Shown here: positions 17,068-64,000 of the stretch, in pieces
Layout of the letters: each line of letters starts with the position of its first letter
Position numbering within the stretch: the stretch's first letter is position 1
Source of the DNA: Candidatus Methanomethylophilaceae archaeon
GTDB lineage: Archaea; Thermoplasmatota; Thermoplasmata; Methanomassiliicoccales; Methanomethylophilaceae
Length of the DNA: 64,000 bases
NCBI GenBank assembly: GCA_944320495.1
Contig: CALUHR010000005.1
Location: 128,001-192,000, forward strand
Reading direction: 5' to 3'
Position numbers and translations under genes: made by a program
The notes under the pieces: generated by a model
Told to the model about the DNA's origin: nothing
Databases searched by the model: none
Seen by the model: the letters and a program-made list of their open reading frames with translations, nothing else

Positions 17068-17426
17068 CCGTCAAGATGTACGTCGAGATGAGGGAGAACT
17101 ACCCATGCACCGACGTAGAGGTGGAGATGACCCTCTCCGACGGCGACAGATCCGCCTGGTACGACTTCATGAAGTGCCGCGGACCCGTGTCCCTCTTCTG
17201 GGACGCCAAGGCCCACAGACTCATCATCCAGACGCCCAAGGTCTACGAGACGAAGGAGTTCCTTGAGTGCCGCAACTGCCACGCGTGGCTCCTCGGTTCC
17301 GAGATCTCCGAGGACAGGGATGGGTACGACGGCGACTGCTTCAAGAGGTGCCCGTGGTGCATGGGCCCGTCCGCCTTCGATCTCATGATGCCTGTCAGGT
17401 TCGAACCGGGGGGGGGTCGTCCTTGA
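17064..17426 (+). CDS. Hypothetical zinc-binding protein
   Basis: CRNC...CPWC; ends inside a G9 tract. Confidence 0.6.
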   Translation: MTVKMYVEMRENYPCTDVEVEMTLSDGDRSAWYDFMKCRGPVSLFWDAKAHRLIIQTPKVYETKEFLECRNCHAWLLGSEISEDRDGYDGDCFKRCPWCMGPSAFDLMMPVRFEPGGGRP

Positions 17427-31521: not shown

Positions 31522-31531
31522 GGGGGGGGGG
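31522..31531 (+). repeat. G10 homopolymer upstream of the RM genes
   Basis: Counted directly; ~108 nt upstream of ATG 31639. Confidence 0.85.
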
Positions 31532-31638
31532 ATTGTAGACATCATCGGAATTGTTCGTCGCAATGCCACACCCACGTTCACACATCGGCGAATCCAGGGA
31601 TCAGATTCTAATGGACCTATGTGTTTCTGGCCTTGGCC

Positions 31639-32805
31639 ATGTCAAACTCAACCCTTTCCGCGGCGAAGGTTGCCAAGAACGATGAGTTCTACACCCAGTA
31701 TTCCGACATCGAGTCTGAGATGAATGCCTATGTGGAATTCAATCCGGATGTGTTCCGTGACAAGACCATCCTTCTGCCATGCGATGATCCGGAGTGGTCG
31801 AATTTCACCAAATATTTCGCCTCGAACTTCGAGCGTTTCGGACTGAAGAAGCTTATTTCCACATCATTCGCCAAAGGTGCGTTCAACAAACAGACCACCT
31901 TACTGGAGTTCAATTCCCCTCTTTACGATAAGGATAAGCACGATTCACATGGCAAGCTGTTCATCGTGGACAGGGATTCCAACGGTTCTGGGAACGTAGA
32001 CATCGACGACATAGAGTTTTCTGGATACCTTCACGGGGACGGCGATTTCAGATCCGAGGAGGTATGCAGACTCAGAGATGAGGCCGACATAATCATAACC
32101 AATCCCCCGTTTTCGTTGTTCAAGGAATTCCTGGCATGGATAATGGAAGCTGACAAGAATTTCGTAATTCTCGGAAACATGAACGCGATACCTTACAAGG
32201 AGGTCTTCCCCTATCTGAAAAACAACCAGATATGGCTCGGATACAAGTCACTCAATCAGGAGATGTATTTCGAGATTAACGATGAATACCGTAAGTGGCT
32301 GTTGGAGAACAAGAAGGAAGGCTCAGCCTATAAGATAGTTGATGGTAGAGTTATGGGTAGGCTGGCCTCGGCTTGCTGGTTCACCAATCTAGATCATGGA
32401 AAACGCCATGAGAAGTTAATTCTCGACACGATGGAGCACAATCTGAAGTTTAACAAGAGACTTCGCAGCGAGTTGGAAAAACACTACGGCGAGATAAAGT
32501 ACCCGAAGTATGACAACTATGATGCCATCGAAGTTCCATTCGTCGAGTGCATACCATCCGATTATGATGGAGTAATGGGCGTTCCCATTACATTCTTGGA
32601 CAAATATTGCCCGGAACAGTTTGAAATCATCTGGCAAGCAAGCGGAAACGCCTATGCCAATGCTCCCAAAGAAATCATGGAGGAGCTGAAATTTGATCCG
32701 TCTGTGAAGTATGGCGGAGGCCTTGGAACGGGCGTGATTAACGGGAAGGCAAAATACAGTCGCATACTGATTCGGACCAGGAGGGATGAGGGGGCGATTG
32801 AATGA
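31639..32805 (+). CDS. Adenine-specific DNA methyltransferase, EcoRI family
   Basis: AKNDEFYTQY, LLPCDDPEWSNF, GDGDFRSEE, IITNPPFSLF, YPKYDNYDAIEV, GVMGVPITFL. Confidence 0.93.
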   Translation: MSNSTLSAAKVAKNDEFYTQYSDIESEMNAYVEFNPDVFRDKTILLPCDDPEWSNFTKYFASNFERFGLKKLISTSFAKGAFNKQTTLLEFNSPLYDKDKHDSHGKLFIVDRDSNGSGNVDIDDIEFSGYLHGDGDFRSEEVCRLRDEADIIITNPPFSLFKEFLAWIMEADKNFVILGNMNAIPYKEVFPYLKNNQIWLGYKSLNQEMYFEINDEYRKWLLENKKEGSAYKIVDGRVMGRLASACWFTNLDHGKRHEKLILDTMEHNLKFNKRLRSELEKHYGEIKYPKYDNYDAIEVPFVECIPSDYDGVMGVPITFLDKYCPEQFEIIWQASGNAYANAPKEIMEELKFDPSVKYGGGLGTGVINGKAKYSRILIRTRRDEGAIE

Positions 32806-40029: not shown

Positions 40030-40097
40030 ATTGCACGCGGGGGGGGGGGTCCGCTGTCTTCGGCTGTCCTCCCCGTCCTCCGTTCGGAGGGAAAATG
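40030..40097 (+). promoter_or_regulatory. Shared adhesin 5' leader with G11 tract (40039-40049) and CCTCC/GGAGG hairpin
   Basis: Near-identical to 42875-42944. Confidence 0.75.
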
Positions 40098-42874: not shown

Positions 42875-42944
42875 ATTGCACGCGGGGGGGGGGGGTCCGC
42901 TGTCTTCGGCTGTCCTCCCCGTCCTCCGTTCGGAGGGATAAATG
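42875..42944 (+). promoter_or_regulatory. Shared adhesin 5' leader with G12 tract (42884-42895) and CCTCC/GGAGG hairpin
   Basis: ATTGCACGC-Gn-TCCGCTGTCTTCGGCTGTCCTCCCCGTCCTCCGTTCGGAGGGA. Confidence 0.75.
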
Positions 42945-55941: not shown

Positions 55942-57323
55942 ACGCATCCAACCGCGCGGTCGCCATCCTGGCAATCGTCGTCACCCTTCTCTCGGCATCG
56001 TTCGTGGGAATCGTATTCTCCGACGATGCCGACGCCAGCAGCACTCCGACGGAGCTCATCCACATGGGCACTGCCTCGGACAACATCACATCCGACAACC
56101 CCGCCGTCATCGAATACGGCGGAGAACCCGCAGTGGAGGTCTACGTCAACAGCAACCTCTCCGACGGCGAATCCGCCGAATCCTGGGACAAGACCGTCTA
56201 CTTCCGCTTCGTTTCCGACGCGCTGAAGGGCTACAACATCTACATCTACGACACGTGGTACTTCACGGACGGTTCCTCGGACGAGTACAACGGGAACAAC
56301 GCTCTCAACAGGAGCAACGAGTACTGGAACACCAACGCGTGGTCCTCGCTCAGGCCCGTCAACCTGACGATGGACAGCGGGGTCAACCGCATCGTCATTC
56401 ACGCCTACATCAACGACCAGGACAGCGGCTACTCGGGGAAACCCGACAGGCTCTCCGGGACCAACGAGGTCACCTTCGACTTCACCCTGGGCAGGACTGA
56501 CGGGTACACCTACGTCACGAAGGTGTCCTACGACATCAACTACTCCGGGGGTTCCAACCCCAACGCGACCTCCACCGATCCCGTGTACCGGCCCTCCGCG
56601 TCCACGGAGAATGTGAAGGTCAAGATCGCGGGCGAGCAGACGAGGTCGGGTTACACCCACGTGGGATGGAACACCTCCTCGTCCGGGAACGGCACCCACT
56701 ACGACGTCGGAGCCACCATCGACGTGAGGATCGGCTCCGAGATCACCCTCTACGCAGAGTGGCAGATCGACAGCCACTCGATAGCACTGTACACGACTGA
56801 CGACTCCAACCCGTGGAAGACGGTATCCGTCCAGCACGGACAGCATCTCTCGATAGAGGATCCGACGGCCCCCGAAGGGAAGCTGTTCGCGGGCTGGTAC
56901 ACGGACAACACCAGGACGCAGCCCTACGACTATCCGAGCGTGACGGCGGACGATTCGCTGTATGCTTTGTTCGTCGACGAGCTGGCGTTCACCACCACGC
57001 CGACGGCGTCCCAGAACGTGACTCCCATCGAGCCCGAGGGGACGTTCATGTTCAGCTCGCTCGAATCCGAATCCGCTGCGAAGGTTCTCTGGGAGTTCCC
57101 CGACGGGACGACTTCTACCGACAGGGTGACGACCCATTGGTTCGAACCCGGTTCCTACAAGGTAAAGCTGACCGTCTGGAACAGTCTCGGAGAAGCATCC
57201 ACCACGGAGATTCAGGTCGAGGTCGGAGAGGAACCCGACGAGGATTCGAACGTCCTGATCTGGGTTACCGCTGGGATCGCGGTCGTGATCGTCGCCGTCG
57301 TCGTGGCGAGGAGGTTCATATGA
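55938..57323 (+). CDS. Surface protein, paralog of the previous gene
   Basis: Same repeat-PKD-anchor scaffold, unrelated N-terminal domain; no poly-G. Confidence 0.87.
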   Translation: MNASNRAVAILAIVVTLLSASFVGIVFSDDADASSTPTELIHMGTASDNITSDNPAVIEYGGEPAVEVYVNSNLSDGESAESWDKTVYFRFVSDALKGYNIYIYDTWYFTDGSSDEYNGNNALNRSNEYWNTNAWSSLRPVNLTMDSGVNRIVIHAYINDQDSGYSGKPDRLSGTNEVTFDFTLGRTDGYTYVTKVSYDINYSGGSNPNATSTDPVYRPSASTENVKVKIAGEQTRSGYTHVGWNTSSSGNGTHYDVGATIDVRIGSEITLYAEWQIDSHSIALYTTDDSNPWKTVSVQHGQHLSIEDPTAPEGKLFAGWYTDNTRTQPYDYPSVTADDSLYALFVDELAFTTTPTASQNVTPIEPEGTFMFSSLESESAAKVLWEFPDGTTSTDRVTTHWFEPGSYKVKLTVWNSLGEASTTEIQVEVGEEPDEDSNVLIWVTAGIAVVIVAVVVARRFI

Positions 57324-58645
57324 ACATGACTAAAACCCGCGACATCAGCGGGAGATCGGCCGCCATCGGCATCGTCGTGCTGATGGCGGTCGCCGCCCTG
57401 GCGATCGTGCCGATGTGCTCGGACGATTCCGAGGCCGTGACGGATCTCGGAGTTTACACCGGCGGAACCAATCTGAGCAGTAAGGACGCCGCATATTCTG
57501 GAATCGAGGTTGACATCTCCAGAATCAATGGGATGACACTCTTCGTCTCAATGGGCGCCCAAATCAAAGTGACATATGACAACTACGTCGACAAATATGA
57601 TGATAATTCGAATGGATTGGGAATGGGATGGAGCATCGGATCTGGCACAGTTTCCGAATACGGAAGTTGCAGATGGGAGGATGCAGCAATCAATTCCTTC
57701 AAACTCATCTGCCTCGATCCGAACAACATTACGAATCTGGGACCATACACTGGCGGAGAGAATCTGAGTTTTGAGAAAGCTGCATATTCTGGCGTAAACG
57801 CCAGTGTCACAGATGATGCTTTTCCAAACACTGGTGCGGGTCGTCCAAATGATATCTATGTGTTGCCTGGGGCCCATATACGCATTGTTGCAGAGGACAC
57901 GGGCCCTTCTTTCACATACTACCCGAATTGGTTCATCTCGTCTACCAATGGGAGAGGGTTGGAGGTGATTGATGGGACAGTCCCAGGCTACGGCGAATGG
58001 TTGGTGATGTGGGACGGTATCGTTCACATCGACATAGGGCTAGTGTGTCTGGGCCCCAGCCACACCGTAACCTTCAACTCGAACGGAGGTTCCGATGTCC
58101 CCAACCAGGTGACCGACTCCGACGGATACGTCATCGCCCCCGAGGACCCCGTCCTCGCGGGCCATGTGTTCGCGGGATGGTTCACCGACGACGGAGAGCC
58201 CTTCGACTTCTCCCAGCCCGTGACATCGGACATCACCCTCCACGCCCAATGGGTCGACGAGCTCGTGTTCACCACGACTCCCACATCCAACGGCACGGTC
58301 CAGTCCGTCCCGATGATGGAGGGCATGATCGTCTGCGACGCCACCCAATCTTCCGATTACACGTCCATCCTCTGGGACCTGGGGGACGGGACGTTCTCCA
58401 CCAACACATACGTCACCCACAGCTACGCCTCTCCGGGGCAGTACACGGTGACGCTCACGGTCTTCAACGAACATGGGAGTGATACCACGGAATTCACTGT
58501 GAACGTGCCCGAGGATGCCGGCAGGGGGGGGGGGGCAGTGACCTCTTGCCCTACGTTCTCGTCGCCATCCTGGCACTCGTATCGGGAGGTCTGGTCCTCA
58601 GACGTCTCCTGTGAACTGATGACAAATGAGGGGGTGTTCCAGTGA
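57320..58645 (+). CDS. Surface protein (passenger, InlB-like repeat, PKD); TM anchor out of frame at G12 tract
   Basis: Start ATG 57320; G12 at 58524-58535; anchor GSDLLPYVLVAILALVSGGLVLRRLL* encoded at 58534-58614 in another frame. Confidence 0.87.
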   Translation: MNMTKTRDISGRSAAIGIVVLMAVAALAIVPMCSDDSEAVTDLGVYTGGTNLSSKDAAYSGIEVDISRINGMTLFVSMGAQIKVTYDNYVDKYDDNSNGLGMGWSIGSGTVSEYGSCRWEDAAINSFKLICLDPNNITNLGPYTGGENLSFEKAAYSGVNASVTDDAFPNTGAGRPNDIYVLPGAHIRIVAEDTGPSFTYYPNWFISSTNGRGLEVIDGTVPGYGEWLVMWDGIVHIDIGLVCLGPSHTVTFNSNGGSDVPNQVTDSDGYVIAPEDPVLAGHVFAGWFTDDGEPFDFSQPVTSDITLHAQWVDELVFTTTPTSNGTVQSVPMMEGMIVCDATQSSDYTSILWDLGDGTFSTNTYVTHSYASPGQYTVTLTVFNEHGSDTTEFTVNVPEDAGRGGGAVTSCPTFSSPSWHSYREVWSSDVSCELMTNEGVFQ

Positions 58646-59964
58646 ACACCCTCTCGAACCTCAAAACCATAGCCGTGGCCGCAATCGCGATCGTCTCGGC
58701 GCTGATGTTCGTACCGATGATGTCGGACGATTCGGATGCGGTCACGGATCTCGGAGTTTACGCCCAAGAGGGGGAGAATGTCAGTTCTCCGACGGCGCTC
58801 TACTCCGGCATCAATGTATGGACAACCGTAGCATTCGTTGACAACAACGAGGTTTACTACGTCTCCCCCGGATCGGAGATCACTTTCGTCATGAACGACA
58901 TCGGGGGACTCACCATCGATTCGAAGGACAAACTCGGATTGAAGGAGGATTCGAGTGTTGGAATCTATGGCGGAATCAGCGGGACGATCACCGGCCAGGG
59001 GTATGTGGAGATCACAGCCGAGGGGGAGTTTTTCTCCAAGTTCTCGTTCTACGTCGCCTGCATCGACCCGAACGGCAGTTCCGATCTCGGAACATACGAT
59101 GGCGGACCCAACATGAGTTCGCCAGAGAAGACGTATTCCAAGATTGAAATACGTGGCTATACCGACTTTTGGAATTTGATCGACGGTTCGAATCTCGTCG
59201 TCTACGTCTCTGATGGGTCGGAGGTTTGGGTCCAGGGTGCCATAATGAGCACGAATCTGGAACGCAACGATCTGAATCTCTCCATTGCTGACATGGAGAT
59301 ATTGTATGGGACGGTCGAAGGCTATGGAACCACGATTTTCAGATCCGAGGCATCACTGTTCACGGTTGTGTGTATGGCCCCTACTCACACCGTCGTCTTT
59401 GACTCCGAAGGCGGTTCCAGTGTCCCCAATCAGGTAACCGACACAGACGGCATCGTCACCGCCCCCGAGGACCCCGTTCTCTCAGGATACATCTTCGGCG
59501 GCTGGTACACCGAGGACAACATCCCGTTCGACTTCTCCCAACCCATATCAGAGGACATAACGCTCCACGCCAAATGGATCGAGACACTCGTCTTCACCAC
59601 GGTTCCAACATCCAGCGGTACCGTCAAGGCCGTCCCGATGATGGCGGGAACCATCGTATGCGACGCATCCCAATCCAGCGACTACACGTCGATCCTCTGG
59701 GATCTCGGGGACGGGACCACATCCACCAACACGTATGTGACACACTACTACAGCCAGCCCGGGACCTATGAGGTAACCCTCACCGTCTTCAACGAACACG
59801 GAACGGATGTCACTACATACACTGTCGAGGTTCCCGAGAGCTCGACCGGGGGGGGGGGCATGACAACCTTCTCCTCTACATCGCAGTCGGACTGCTCGCA
59901 ACCATTCTCATCGCAGTCGTCGCATTGCGGTTGCTCTGACCACTCCATGGGGGCGGTCGCGTGA
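58642..59964 (+). CDS. Surface protein; TM anchor out of frame at G11 tract
   Basis: G11 at 59848-59858; anchor HDNLLLYIAVGLLATILIAVVALRLL* at 59859-59939 in another frame. Confidence 0.87.
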   Translation: MNTLSNLKTIAVAAIAIVSALMFVPMMSDDSDAVTDLGVYAQEGENVSSPTALYSGINVWTTVAFVDNNEVYYVSPGSEITFVMNDIGGLTIDSKDKLGLKEDSSVGIYGGISGTITGQGYVEITAEGEFFSKFSFYVACIDPNGSSDLGTYDGGPNMSSPEKTYSKIEIRGYTDFWNLIDGSNLVVYVSDGSEVWVQGAIMSTNLERNDLNLSIADMEILYGTVEGYGTTIFRSEASLFTVVCMAPTHTVVFDSEGGSSVPNQVTDTDGIVTAPEDPVLSGYIFGGWYTEDNIPFDFSQPISEDITLHAKWIETLVFTTVPTSSGTVKAVPMMAGTIVCDASQSSDYTSILWDLGDGTTSTNTYVTHYYSQPGTYEVTLTVFNEHGTDVTTYTVEVPESSTGGGGMTTFSSTSQSDCSQPFSSQSSHCGCSDHSMGAVA

Positions 59965-61247
59965 CCGCCCCTGTAAACCTCAAGACGGCCTTCGTGACGA
60001 TTCTCGCTTTGGCATCCGCGATGGCGTTCGTCCCATTGATTGCGGACGATTCCGACGCGGTTACCGATCTCGGGACGTACGCTGGCGGGGAGAATCTCAG
60101 CACCCCAGACGCCGCCTATTCTGGGATAGTTATAAACAGCGTGGGAACAACGCTTCCCAGCAACAAGGTGTTCTACGTAACCATTGGTGCGGACGTGAGT
60201 CTGTCCCTTGGAGATGAGAATCAGAGTTTCGATTGTGAGAATAACGACCTCGGCCTGTACAATGACGACTTGTACGGCGGTGTCGATGGAACCGTCTCCG
60301 GGTACGGATGTGCGGAGATTTTTGCGGATTACAGTTACAGCAGATTCTACATCCTGATTGTCAGTCTCGATCCGAATGGAGTGACCGATCTGGGATCGTA
60401 CGACGGTTCGGTGAACGTCAGCAGCCCCACCGCCACATATTCTGGCATTACGAAGCACGGGGACTGGTTCGAGACGATTTACGTCTCGCTTGGTGCGGTC
60501 ATAGACGTCAGGGAGGAGAATGAACCGCTTGTTCTCTCCCTGTCGAACGATGACATGGGCATCTATGTCTGGACGGACAACAGCATCGACCAGCTCGGAG
60601 GCACGGTTTCAGCCTATGGTTCAACCGATGTGATGATCTCCTACTCTACGGGCGGTTACAGCTATACCATAACATGTCTAGAACCCATCAAAACATACAC
60701 CGTCATCTTTGATTCCAACGGCGGTTCCACAGTGGACAACTTCGTCACCGATGCCGACGGACTCGTCAAGGAACCCGACGACCCGGTCCTGGCGAACCAC
60801 ATCTTCGCAGGCTGGTACACGGACGATGGCGAACCCTTCGACTTCTCGCAGCCGATCTCCGAGGACATAACCCTCTATGCCCAGTGGGTGGACGAGCTCG
60901 TCTTCACCACCATTCCCACATCGGATGGCATCGTCAAGGCTGTTTCCAGTCTCGCAGGCACGATCCTCTGCGACGCCACGCTGTCCTCCGACTACACCTC
61001 CCTTCTCTGGGATCTCGGTGACGGAACGACATCGACCAACACCTACGTCACACACTACTATGGCGAACCGGGCCGGTACAAGGTGACTCTAACTGTTTTT
61101 AACGAACACGGGAGTGATACCACGGAATTCACAGTCAATGTGCCCGAAGAGTCCGTCGGGGGGGGGGGCAATGAACTCCTTCTCTACGCCGCAGTCGGAC
61201 TGCTGGCACTCGTCGCGGGAGGTCTGGTCGTTAGAAGGTTCCTCTGA
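59961..61247 (+). CDS. Surface protein; TM anchor in frame through G11 tract
   Basis: G11 at 61158-61168; reads VGGGGNELLLYAAVGLLALVAGGLVVRRFL*. Confidence 0.9.
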   Translation: MTAPVNLKTAFVTILALASAMAFVPLIADDSDAVTDLGTYAGGENLSTPDAAYSGIVINSVGTTLPSNKVFYVTIGADVSLSLGDENQSFDCENNDLGLYNDDLYGGVDGTVSGYGCAEIFADYSYSRFYILIVSLDPNGVTDLGSYDGSVNVSSPTATYSGITKHGDWFETIYVSLGAVIDVREENEPLVLSLSNDDMGIYVWTDNSIDQLGGTVSAYGSTDVMISYSTGGYSYTITCLEPIKTYTVIFDSNGGSTVDNFVTDADGLVKEPDDPVLANHIFAGWYTDDGEPFDFSQPISEDITLYAQWVDELVFTTIPTSDGIVKAVSSLAGTILCDATLSSDYTSLLWDLGDGTTSTNTYVTHYYGEPGRYKVTLTVFNEHGSDTTEFTVNVPEESVGGGGNELLLYAAVGLLALVAGGLVVRRFL

Positions 61248-61274
61248 TCTTGCTATGGCCGAGGGGGCGGTCGA

Positions 61275-62186
61275 ATGACCGCCTCTACAAACCTAAACAA
61301 GGGGATGTGCGGAATCGCCATCCTGGCTATCATCATTTCATCGTTGTCTGGGATGATTATGGTTTTCTCAGAAGATGGAGAAGCCGCTACGAGAGGTGGT
61401 TCTGGAACCCCCGAAGATCCATACTGGGGAACATTCGGTGGTCTGACAATTTATCTTCAGTGTAATCAGCACGATGGTGCCTATTTCCTCGTCGGCACCG
61501 TGTTCAGGTATGGTGAGCCATCTAGTGGTGAGGGATTCTATGACATATCTCCTGGATTTGGCCTAATCAGTGATGACTATACCATCGTAGGCACTGTGAC
61601 AAAGTCTGGGCAGTTCGATGCCCACCTCAAGAATCCAGCACAGGCCGATGAAATAACTCCAGCACACTTCACGATTTATTTCATAGACGAACCAGTCACA
61701 CCAACATATACAGTCGTCTTCAACTCCAACGGCGGATCGGACGTCCCCAACGCCACCACCGATGCCAGCGGCCTTGTCAAGGAACCCGACGATCCAGTCC
61801 TTGCGGATCACGTCTTCGCGGGCTGGTACACCAGCGACGGCGAGCCCTTTGACTTCTCCCAGCCCGTTACGGAGGACATAACCCTCCATGCACAGTGGGT
61901 CGACGAACTCGTGTTCACGACCATACCTACATCCGATGGCACCGTAAAGGCCGTGTCCGGCCTTGCAGGTACCATCCTCTGCGACGCAACCCTGTCCTCG
62001 GACTACACATCCCTTCTCTGGGACCTGGGCGACGGCACCTTCTCCGACAACACCTATGTCACGCACTACTACTCCGAACCCGGAACGTACACCGTGACCC
62101 TCACCGCGTACAATAACTACGGCACCGACGTCACGAAATTTACTGTCGAAGTGCCCGAGAATCTCGCTGGGGGGGGGGGGCAATGA
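61275..62186 (+). CDS. Surface protein; truncated just before the TM anchor at G12 tract
   Basis: G12 at 62169-62180 gives GGGGQ*; anchor NDSILLWVPVILLAAILAAVVITRLL* at 62182-62262 in another frame. Confidence 0.87.
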   Translation: MTASTNLNKGMCGIAILAIIISSLSGMIMVFSEDGEAATRGGSGTPEDPYWGTFGGLTIYLQCNQHDGAYFLVGTVFRYGEPSSGEGFYDISPGFGLISDDYTIVGTVTKSGQFDAHLKNPAQADEITPAHFTIYFIDEPVTPTYTVVFNSNGGSDVPNATTDASGLVKEPDDPVLADHVFAGWYTSDGEPFDFSQPVTEDITLHAQWVDELVFTTIPTSDGTVKAVSGLAGTILCDATLSSDYTSLLWDLGDGTFSDNTYVTHYYSEPGTYTVTLTAYNNYGTDVTKFTVEVPENLAGGGGQ

Positions 62187-62283
62187 CAGCATATTGCTGT
62201 GGGTCCCCGTCATCCTCCTGGCAGCCATCCTCGCCGCCGTGGTCATCACTCGGCTGCTCTGAACCCATTGCGGAGGTGGTCTG

Positions 62284-64000
62284 ATGGCCACCTCCGTCAA
62301 ACATCTCAGGGAATTCGCCGTCCTTGCGGTGGCGATTTGCTTGATTTCGATCATCTCCTTCGATGACGTGTCGGCGGATTCGGACGACTACTATCGCTAT
62401 GTCATTCATACCGATGGCACCATTGAGGGAAACTACACACCCATCGGAACATCATCGTCCACTGGCAGCTACACCAGCGTGAATGGTACGAACAGCGGGT
62501 CCTGGGCGTTCGACGAGGATGGATATGGCCCCTTCGGCTCGTTCTACGCGGCATTCGATCCTGCACAGGACAACAAGATGATTGGCCATCTGGATCCCGA
62601 TGACCTGACCAGGCTTGTCGATGGTACAAGCATTGCCGGACAACGGTACAATGTGATGTGGTGTCTCCCGACAGTGTACTGGCTCACGGATTCGAACGGG
62701 AATCTGATTCTCACCGACGACCCAGATGCTGGCGGAACTGCCTACGCGCACACCATAGATGGACACGTCTACGGCTACATCGGGATAGGAGTTTATGAGG
62801 CTAGCACTTGGACTGTCAATGGTAAGGCAATCTTAACATCATTCACAGAGATGGACCCAAGAACAGCTACAACACCAATCATCATGCGCGGTTGGGCAAA
62901 CAATCAACTTGTCAACACCTCTAATGACGAAACAAACGGTTGCGCCATGTTATGGAACTTCTACCAGTGGCAGTTGTATCGTTTCTGCGCTGTATCGGTT
63001 ATGGGATCTTGGAATTCCCAATCGGTTGCTGGGACTGGTAGTTTCAATTACAATAGATTCGATGGATATGCGGAAACCACGGGACAACTCGACAGCTCTG
63101 GACCTTACGCTGGAGACAAAACAACTGGCTCTGCAGGATATTGTACCCCCGTCAAGGTTTTCATCGAAAACGCATGGGGATCCACCGAAGAGTATGTTGA
63201 CGGCGTGGTAATTGATTCGCTCGAATACTATATCGATCAATCCGCGGTACCAACAGGAACAACGTCTGGAACATACATAACCAATCCGAATGGAAAACTA
63301 CCTCTGGGTTTAACTGGAGTGTATGCAGGCAGCCCCTCAACCGAAACCCAGATATGGGGTATGCCGACATCGATGGCGTCGACGCCTTTGCTATATGACG
63401 CGGCCATAACCACAAATGATACGGGAACACGCATCATGCTGGTTGGAGGCGCCCCCACAACTACGGATTCAATAATATCTGTCGCACAGTTCGGAGGCAT
63501 TTCGGCTATTAATTGCTCATACGTCGGGACATCCAGCATATATGTGGGGTCCCGTCTCGCCTTCGTCTTCGACGACGACCCATTCCAGCCCCAGACACAC
63601 ACCGTAACCTTCTCCACCGGTTCCTCCACCACCATCCCCTCCCAGATCATCGAATCCGGCCAGACCGCCCTCACACCCTCCAACCCCACCCTCGAAGGCT
63701 ACGTCTTCGACTGCTGGAGCACTTCCCCGACATCCCGCGTCCCCTACGACTTCAACACCCCCGTGACGCAGGACATCACCCTCTACGCCTTCTGGGTCGA
63801 GACCCTCGTCTTCACCACCACGCCCACCTCGCAGGGAACCGTCTCCGCCGTCCCGCGGATGGCCGGCACGATCCTCTGCGACGCGACGGGTTCCAGGGAT
63901 TACACGTCCCTGCTCTGGGACCTCGGCGACGGGACGCTCTCGACCGACAACTACGTCACCCACTACTACTCCGATCCGGGGACCTACACGGTCACGCTGA
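62284..64000 (+). CDS. Surface protein with CLec/FGE-sulfatase-like passenger, InlB-like repeat and PKD (partial; not in the ORF track)
   Basis: Manually translated open frame from ATG 62284 to the window end: signal peptide, IGVYEAS, IENAWGSTEEYVDG, RIMLVGG...VGSRLAF, then WDLGDG PKD. Confidence 0.85.
   Translation, partial: MATSVKHLREFAVLAVAICLISIISFDDVSADSDDYYRYVIHTDGTIEGNYTPIGTSSSTGSYTSVNGTNSGSWAFDEDGYGPFGSFYAAFDPAQDNKMIGHLDPDDLTRLVDGTSIAGQRYNVMWCLPTVYWLTDSNGNLILTDDPDAGGTAYAHTIDGHVYGYIGIGVYEASTWTVNGKAILTSFTEMDPRTATTPIIMRGWANNQLVNTSNDETNGCAMLWNFYQWQLYRFCAVSVMGSWNSQSVAGTGSFNYNRFDGYAETTGQLDSSGPYAGDKTTGSAGYCTPVKVFIENAWGSTEEYVDGVVIDSLEYYIDQSAVPTGTTSGTYITNPNGKLPLGLTGVYAGSPSTETQIWGMPTSMASTPLLYDAAITTNDTGTRIMLVGGAPTTTDSIISVAQFGGISAINCSYVGTSSIYVGSRLAFVFDDDPFQPQTHTVTFSTGSSTTIPSQIIESGQTALTPSNPTLEGYVFDCWSTSPTSRVPYDFNTPVTQDITLYAFWVETLVFTTTPTSQGTVSAVPRMAGTILCDATGSRDYTSLLWDLGDGTLSTDNYVTHYYSDPGTYTVTL

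Follow-up and report, generated by a model that had tools for sequence, protein, structure and literature searches.

The 64,000-nt stretch analysed here (the window; positions 128001-192000 of contig C5 of genome G000) comes from a Candidatus Methanomethylophilaceae archaeon and carries a tandem array of adhesin-like genes, four of which contain a long poly-G tract just before the segment encoding their membrane anchor. The source genome (1.77 Mb in 14 contigs, 90.6% complete, GC content of approximately 62%) contains mcrA, which identifies it as that of a methanogenic archaeon, and the sequencing runs in which the window occurs are chicken-gut metagenomes. The array consists of eight genes arranged head to tail on the + strand, from position 53096 to just beyond the window end, which we named g-3 to g-1, g1 to g4 and g5. 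All of them except g-3 encode Flg_new (Listeria-Bacteroides repeat; PF09479) followed by PKD (PF00801/PF18911), both above the curated Pfam cut-offs. Each gene of the array also encodes, at the N-terminus, a hydrophobic segment resembling a signal and, at the C-terminus, a hydrophobic helix with basic residues behind it, and it is this combination of domains, N-terminus and transmembrane helix that defines the Flg_new/PKD adhesin-like surface proteins. The C-termini of the tract genes are hydrophobic over 25-26 residues and end in R-x-L-L or R-R-F-L. Archaeosortase/exosortase sorting signals (PGF-CTERM and relatives) were not matched when g3, g5 and the g1 allele P0049 were searched with the NCBIfam models, which returned only repeat and PKD hits.

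Every tract lies on the coding strand, between the end of the PKD domain (V-P-E...) and the membrane helix. A previous examination of the letters alone (the sequence-only reading) had described G12, G11, G11 and G12 tracts at this same position in four consecutive adhesins, and their presence was confirmed. Three-frame translation showed that g3 alone reads into its anchor. As assembled, g1 and g2 end in a hydrophilic tail of 34-36 residues, while g4 stops two codons past its tract. The anchors of these three genes are intact in another frame (+2 for g1 and g2, +1 for g4), and the lengths required to restore them (G10/G13, G9/G12 and G11/G14, respectively) are exactly those that had been predicted. 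Anchors and tails are very different in nature, with Kyte-Doolittle peaks of 2.5-3.1 and of 0.12 or less, respectively. Note that G9 matches occur 26 times in the window, compared to 3.06 expected, and that in-frame CGA codons are absent from the eight genes and from the out-of-frame anchors, all the stops being TGA.

By translation, three different endings are possible at each tract: the anchor, an immediate TGA or the hydrophilic tail. The immediate TGA is hidden in the anchor frame, where it is formed by the codons AGT GAC, CAT GAC, AAT GAA and AAT GAC of g1 to g4. For these Ser, His and Asn residues, T-ending codons represent only 23-31% of the codons used in the array genes, and AAC GAC is found at the corresponding site of the tract-free paralog g-2, in agreement with the earlier proposal that the hidden stops are built from T-ending codons against a preference for C-ending ones. 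The same reading had proposed a two-state toggle between anchored and released proteins, with up to 16 combinations. The anchor does move in and out of frame between alleles, but the outcomes are three and not two, which raises the number of possible genotypes to 81. The coordinates of all these elements are collected in Table 1.

Table 1. Tracts, anchors, genes and junction hairpins of the adhesin-like array, in window coordinates.
Feature	Position	Strand	Description
Tract 1	58524-58535	+	G12; anchor with G10/G13, immediate stop with G11, tail with G12
Tract 2	59848-59858	+	G11; anchor with G9/G12, stop with G10, tail with G11
Tract 3	61158-61168	+	G11; anchor with G11
Tract 4	62169-62180	+	G12; anchor with G11, stop with G12, tail with G10/G13
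g1 anchor segment	58537-58614	+	Out of frame as assembled; hidden TGA 58539-58541
g2 anchor segment	59859-59939	+	Out of frame; hidden TGA 59861-59863
g3 anchor segment	61170-61247	+	In frame; hidden TGA 61172-61174
g4 anchor segment	62182-62262	+	Out of frame; hidden TGA 62184-62186 is the stop used as assembled
Junction hairpin 1	58627-58656	+	13-bp stem with G-rich SD-like 5' arm; g2 GTG 58642 and tail TGA 58643 in or beside the loop; -21.2 kcal/mol
Junction hairpin 2	59947-59974	+	12-bp stem around g3 GTG 59961; tail TGA 59962; -23.0 kcal/mol
Junction hairpin 3	61263-61286	+	10-bp stem around g4 ATG 61275; tail TGA 61276; -19.1 kcal/mol
Junction hairpin 4	62270-62297	+	5' arm GGAGGTGG (near-consensus SD); g5 ATG 62284; tail TGA 62282; -24.5 kcal/mol, z = -5.5
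g-3	53096-54634	+	Tract-free; Flg_new_2 and transglutaminase core instead of Flg_new/PKD; anchor in frame
g-2	54631-55941	+	Tract-free paralog; anchor in frame
g-1	55938-57323	+	Tract-free paralog; anchor in frame
g1	57320-58645	+	Flg_new and PKD adhesin-like gene; assembled with long tail; protein P0009
g2	58642-59964	+	Flg_new and PKD; assembled with long tail
g3	59961-61247	+	Only tract gene assembled with anchor in frame; protein P0070
g4	61275-62186	+	Assembled with immediate stop; protein P0060
g5	62284..64000, past window end	+	Tract-free last paralog; linker GGEGDGD; anchor in frame

The sequence data indicated that the length of the tracts varies between otherwise near-identical alleles. 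Orthologs were taken from clusters of at least 90% identity built from independent ENA, Logan and NCBI assemblies, and the Logan contigs of four chicken-gut runs (X1-X4, from two studies) were compared. Note that the lengths in other assemblies were deduced from the protein ends; they were read from DNA only in genome G066 and in the Logan contigs. Among these orthologs, the same sites carry from G9 to G13. For tract 1, the proteins P0049 (G10, anchor), P0045 (G11, stop) and P0009 (G12, tail) are 100% identical upstream of the tract; the X1 contig has G11, and a second protein, P0013, also has the anchor in frame. Tract 2 is found with the anchor in P0065 (G9) and P0004 (G12), with the stop in P0064 and P0066 (G10) and with the tail in P0001, P0002, P0003, P0063 and P0069 (G11), the last being the length present in the window and in runs X1 and X2. 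Tract 3 is G12 (stop) in run X1 and G13 (tail) in run X3, and among the proteins P0006 ends in the stop and P0011 and P0260 in the tail. Tract 4 was represented by five G11, two G12, three G13 and one G10 sequences, and is G10 in run X2 and in a diverged strain of X4. The g4 proteins P0057 (stop) and P0058 (anchor) have an identical upstream sequence, and the G10 tail form read in run X2 corresponds to protein P0053, so here two data sources cross-check each other.

Taken together, the implied lengths are G10/11/12 for g1, G9/10/11/12 for g2 and G10/11/12/13 for g4, and all three endings are present within the clusters of at least 90% identity of each of g1, g2, g3 and g4. The same three states were observed in five further, more distant gene lineages. 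The tally of distinct tract-bearing sequences, which includes the window copies and four entries reclassified by eye, gave approximately 81 sequences: about 36 with the anchor, 29 with the tail and 16 with the stop. All the tract-free relatives (18 of 18) are anchored. The commonest lengths of g1 (G12) and g2 (G11) correspond to the tail state. Different states are found on upstream protein sequences that are 98-100% identical, which is the variation of length between constant flanks by which contingency loci are recognised; the identical stretches with differing states cover 300-405 residues, and this in genes that otherwise diverge quickly, one of them being only 78% identical between two strains. 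The out-of-frame anchors are free of stops and correspond to those that other alleles have in frame, indicating that the anchor frame is still in use, and a second lesion was absent in 80 of the approximately 81 sequences.

Two proteins, P0236 and P0243, have a second frame shift inside the anchor, located after the conserved AGGL (GGAGGT) run in P0236 and earlier, after DSDLLL, in P0243; these shifts may be assembly errors or may mark a second slippery spot. Moreover, P0231 and the P0021 cluster have the same N-terminal body joined to either a tract-bearing or a tract-free C-terminal cassette, and the PKD-anchor module appears to be swapped between genes by recombination.

The two frames that do not encode the anchor also have constant outcomes. 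In every stop state the TGA comes 1-2 residues past the Gly run; the ortholog survey recommended by the sequence-only reading found the tract at the same sites, as G9-G13, and the hidden stop to be conserved. The complete tails (29 tail sequences, a few of them cut by a contig end) have 34-37 residues and all end at the next start. In synonymous recoding of the anchors, the joint chance of having one open frame and one immediate stop was 0.08-0.16 per gene, values that are not independent and are not simply multiplied, since the paralogs share ancestry. The spacers between the anchor stop and the next start (27, 21, 27 and 21 nt, and 30 nt in the related module of G066) are all multiples of three, and consequently the tail-frame TGA falls on the next start codon, giving the overlaps GTGA, GTGA, ATGA and TGATG after g1 to g4 and ATGA in G066. 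It had been claimed that two off-frame tails stop at the GTGA of the next gene; this was correct for g1 and g2, but the number was too low, as the tail frames of all four genes overlap the following start. In the tract-free genes g-3, g-2 and g-1 (53096..57323), the ATGA overlap with the following start is instead provided by the stop of the anchor frame.

Each tract gene is followed by a perfect hairpin of 10-13 bp with a 4-nt loop, and the start codon of the next gene is located within or next to this loop. The 5' arm is G-rich and resembles a Shine-Dalgarno (SD) sequence, while the 3' arm comprises codons 2-5 of the next gene. Folding energies were -19 to -24.5 kcal/mol at the tract junctions, compared to -4 to -10 kcal/mol at the three tract-free junctions, which show plain GGAGG motifs. 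Covariation, calculated on four sequences only, gave 92% of the cells paired, with 5 of the 13 pairs changed on both sides, compared to 46-59% in slid controls. When the whole genome was scanned for start codons located in hairpin loops, the results were too noisy for a clean statistic; the four junction hairpins were among the longest that have an SD-like arm. A 16S rRNA gene, which would contain the anti-SD, is absent from the assembly. A further perfect 13-bp hairpin (CCCGGGGGCGGGC / GCCCGCCCCCGGG) is present after the g5 stop, at G000:C5:192159-192189, with an ATG beside the loop and only an 18-codon open reading frame (ORF) behind it; this could be either the vestige of a junction module or a stabiliser of the terminus.

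Translational coupling through overlapping stop and start codons, with the start hidden in a hairpin, is known from bacterial operons and RNA phages. The array has both elements, a stop/start overlap (ATGA, GTGA or TGATG) and an SD and start sequestered in a stable, conserved structure, which would be opened only by a ribosome translating from upstream. It differs in that here a hypermutable tract length would choose which upstream frame reaches the overlap, and we found no precedent for this in the literature searched. The anchor-frame stop sits 7-13 nt upstream of the stem. From this geometry, a ribosome terminating in the anchor frame would leave the hairpin mostly closed, while one in the tail frame would traverse the whole 5' arm. 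The tail state looks designed, and since the tail frame alone ends in the loop hiding the next start, the switch may also gate the downstream gene.

These observations suggested a more elaborate scheme, which we put forward tentatively: the array could function as a translational relay programmed by the tracts, with the next gene opened by the tail state alone. The tract-free head genes would hand on the ribosomes via their ATGA overlaps; at the tract genes, the tail state alone would carry the ribosome into the start-hiding hairpin; and the first gene in a different state would be displayed (anchor) or released (stop), with everything downstream remaining untranslated. In this way, the four G runs would pick one of five variable adhesins at a time. 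If true, this relay would represent mutually exclusive antigenic variation obtained from slippage plus translational coupling. The window itself (tail, tail, anchor, stop) fits the scheme. The other haplotypes, read from other contigs (stop, tail, anchor, anchor; tail, anchor; stop, stop, stop; and anchor, tail), weigh neither for nor against it.

Our preferred interpretation, which we consider likely to be correct, is the simpler one: the tracts are contingency tracts that switch the C-terminus of the protein among anchor, truncation and tail. As in simple sequence repeat contingency loci, the long repeat is over-represented, its length varies between the same flanks and, by translation, the product is altered. 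The four poly-G runs would be hypermutable elements placed at the 3' end of tandem adhesin-like genes, where the gain or loss of Gs, most likely by replication slippage, would select one of three C-termini: the transmembrane anchor; an immediate TGA, which would remove the anchor; or a hydrophilic tail of 34-37 residues, translated through the anchor-coding DNA and the spacer and ending on the next start codon. Slipped-strand mispairing would have to operate at high and reversible rates within one lineage, the anchorless products would leave the cell surface and the ribosomes translating the tail would unfold the hairpin and reinitiate at the gene that follows. The idea of slipped-strand phase variation had already been advanced by the sequence-only reading. 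It is now partly supported, as far as sequence data allow: the length differs between near-identical alleles, with the anchor intact and in or out of frame.

Several points count against this interpretation. The length data obtained from the runs are Logan contigs with 3-6x depth, which are weak taken alone; many of these contigs end at a tract, and PCR as well as Illumina libraries are prone to errors in long G runs. The tally counts distinct sequences and not samples or cells, and the shared ancestry of the paralogs limits what the recoding values can add. Moreover, only about 44% of the alleles are in the anchor frame, which would be surprising if selection acted mainly in favour of anchoring. 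Finally, the release of the anchorless proteins and the use of the tail are predictions from the DNA.

The alternative that survives best, although we think it unlikely, is a mechanism acting for the most part on the RNA. Slippage of the RNA polymerase, or frameshifting of the ribosome on G-GGG-GGG, would produce a mixture of C-termini from any allele, and the DNA length would just shift their ratios. Transcriptional slippage is favoured by long homopolymers, and G-GGG-GGG corresponds in form to a slippery heptamer; such a mechanism, which is compatible with our interpretation, would explain why non-anchor alleles are common. However, a programmed site should keep one frame relationship, which here varies among alleles with identical flanks, and the variation of length was directly seen at the DNA level in the run contigs. 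A fixed programmed ribosomal frameshift site was rejected, because all three frame relationships occur among such alleles.

Even less probable, in our opinion, is that the states are slow polymorphisms fixed between strains, or the first steps of gene decay. In favour of this possibility, the differences were seen only between assemblies. Yet they lie on 100% identical upstream sequences of 300-405 residues in genes that otherwise diverge quickly (78% identity between two strains), the out-of-frame anchors have remained open and matching the in-frame ones, and second lesions are missing in 80 of the approximately 81 sequences. The proposal that all true tracts have the anchor in frame, and that the other states are homopolymer miscounts, can draw on the difficulty of G11 to G13 for PCR-based libraries and on the low depth (3-6x) and contig breaks already mentioned, but we regard it as highly improbable, and an assembly artefact as a very unlikely source of the length differences, because the lengths span 4 nt per tract (G9-G12 or G10-G13) instead of ±1 around one value, the modal g1 and g2 lengths are tail states, the same non-anchor states were obtained repeatedly, by different pipelines and on several contigs, there would be no sense in a hidden stop, an open tail frame and a hairpin unless the out-of-frame states are read, and the long ORFs near the array (880 and 1,236 aa) are unbroken.

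Having weighed these alternatives, we return to the tracts and to their genomic context. Counting both bases, G/C runs in the genome number approximately 3,400 of length 5 and 365 of length 6, followed by 9, 4 and 1 of lengths 7, 8 and 9, and then by 4, 9, 6 and 1 of lengths 10, 11, 12 and 13. The distribution is therefore bimodal, a shape typical of selected contingency tracts. The other tracts of the genome precede either large ORFs of surface-protein genes, at a distance of 45-130 nt, or an EcoRI-type methyltransferase gene. Across the genus, runs of G10 or longer were detected in 59 of 62 species, closed genomes included. In each of 30 other genomes, the first poly-G locus was found in a 5' coding or leader context, in surface-protein genes, and not in the 3' anchor context. 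Three genomes (G016, G074 and G077) gave very high numbers of G10-or-longer matches (approximately 140-210), perhaps because their G runs are very long or because poly-G artefacts of the reads accumulate at contig ends.

A close ortholog of the array was not found in the other 61 species genomes of the genus, and a related module was detected, at the DNA level, only in G066 (contig C36), which is another species of the genus. This module has G11 followed by CAATGAC; its anchor is in frame, the second frame meets a TGA at once and the third remains open up to an ATGA overlap, with a GGAGGUGGCG/CGCCAUCUCC hairpin around the AUG. When the PKD-plus-anchor piece was used to search the protein representatives, only giant multi-PKD proteins matched. 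We also searched for mismatch repair: the MutS_V and NucS_C models had no match in this genome or in the closed genomes G008, G015, G046 and G030 (three of the genus and one of the order), while the controls behaved as expected. Thus, with the MutS domain V and NucS models, no known mismatch-repair system was found in this group, a result consistent with poor repair of slippage loops.

Other tracts were seen outside the array. A second class, with G10-G12 tracts, is present in the window (40039-40049, 42884-42895 and 46763-46772) and elsewhere in the same contig (G000:C5:83098-83108 and C5:105826-105836). These tracts lie 45-55 nt upstream of the ATG of large ORFs (approximately 500-1,350 aa) and share the motif TGCACGC-G(n)-C/U-rich-CCTCCG..CGGAGG, the last part of which resembles an SD-hiding hairpin; they are possibly leader-located contingency tracts. 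Approximately 90 nt separate a G10 run (31522-31531) from the downstream gene for an EcoRI-type adenine methyltransferase (31621-32802), a candidate for phase variation, behind which lies a GmrSD/HNH endonuclease gene. In addition, a G9 run (17408-17416) is located inside a 278-aa ORF with no Pfam hit.

The closest known systems are bacterial. In Bordetella pertussis, the poly-G tracts of tcfA and bapC (PMC1891110) are, as here, intragenic G/C runs in surface-protein genes in which a frameshift truncates the product. The bacterial intragenic loci also have G8 to G13 runs whose length varies between strains, as in our alleles, and additionally within cultures (PMC1891110). As in the genome studied here, bacterial poly-G/C tracts cluster in surface-protein and restriction-modification genes, and the homopolymer lengths of the genome are bimodal. 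The phasomes of Campylobacter, Neisseria and Helicobacter are further examples of poly-G/C contingency. What distinguishes the array is its host, a methanogenic archaeon, and the position of the tract at the extreme 3' end, so that all states include the complete ectodomain and differ only in the anchor; besides, all three frames have defined, conserved outcomes and four genes are in tandem. Homopolymer slippage in a cell-surface gene is also shared with the poly-C of Gardnerella nanH3 (bioRxiv 10.1101/2020.09.16.300947) and the poly-A of Listeria inlA (PMC2831843), but there the tract directly follows the signal peptide and the protein is lost, whereas here the localisation would change and not the presence.

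Homopolymeric tracts have been surveyed in 99 genomes, including 18 from archaea; poly-A/T was enriched at 5' ends, and a long poly-G class was not found in archaea (PMC2831843). In addition, a 2025 review considers the distribution of archaeal phase-variable loci as future work (PMC11868660). Flg_new adhesin-like proteins have been described in the host-associated Methanomassiliicoccales (PMC10673518, PMC9723798), gut methanogens whose proteins have the same domain type, and no link of these proteins to homopolymers or phase variation was found in the literature searched. Likewise, nothing relevant was found for Methanomethylophilus/Methanomassiliicoccales or for methanogen adhesin-like proteins in combination with phase variation or homopolymers. 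Our search gave no archaeal report, in line with the earlier statement that this type of switch was apparently undescribed in archaea.

In summary, this is probably a slippage switch of a kind known in bacteria and for which no archaeal report was found. Phase variation driven by slippage is central for bacterial pathogens and commensals. Here, a methanogen genus associated with hosts possesses a collection of G10-G13 tracts, located at genes for surface proteins and methyltransferases, and at least one gene family puts the tract before the anchor, so that the switch would alter the destination of the protein and not its production. All three frames have conserved, distinct outcomes, and one of them is wired to the hidden start codon of the next gene. 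If confirmed, these findings would offer a concrete starting point for understanding surface variation in gut archaea and would advise caution in annotation, since "frameshifted" adhesin genes in such genomes would not be errors; they would also reveal a compact natural design for the stochastic choice among tandem genes.

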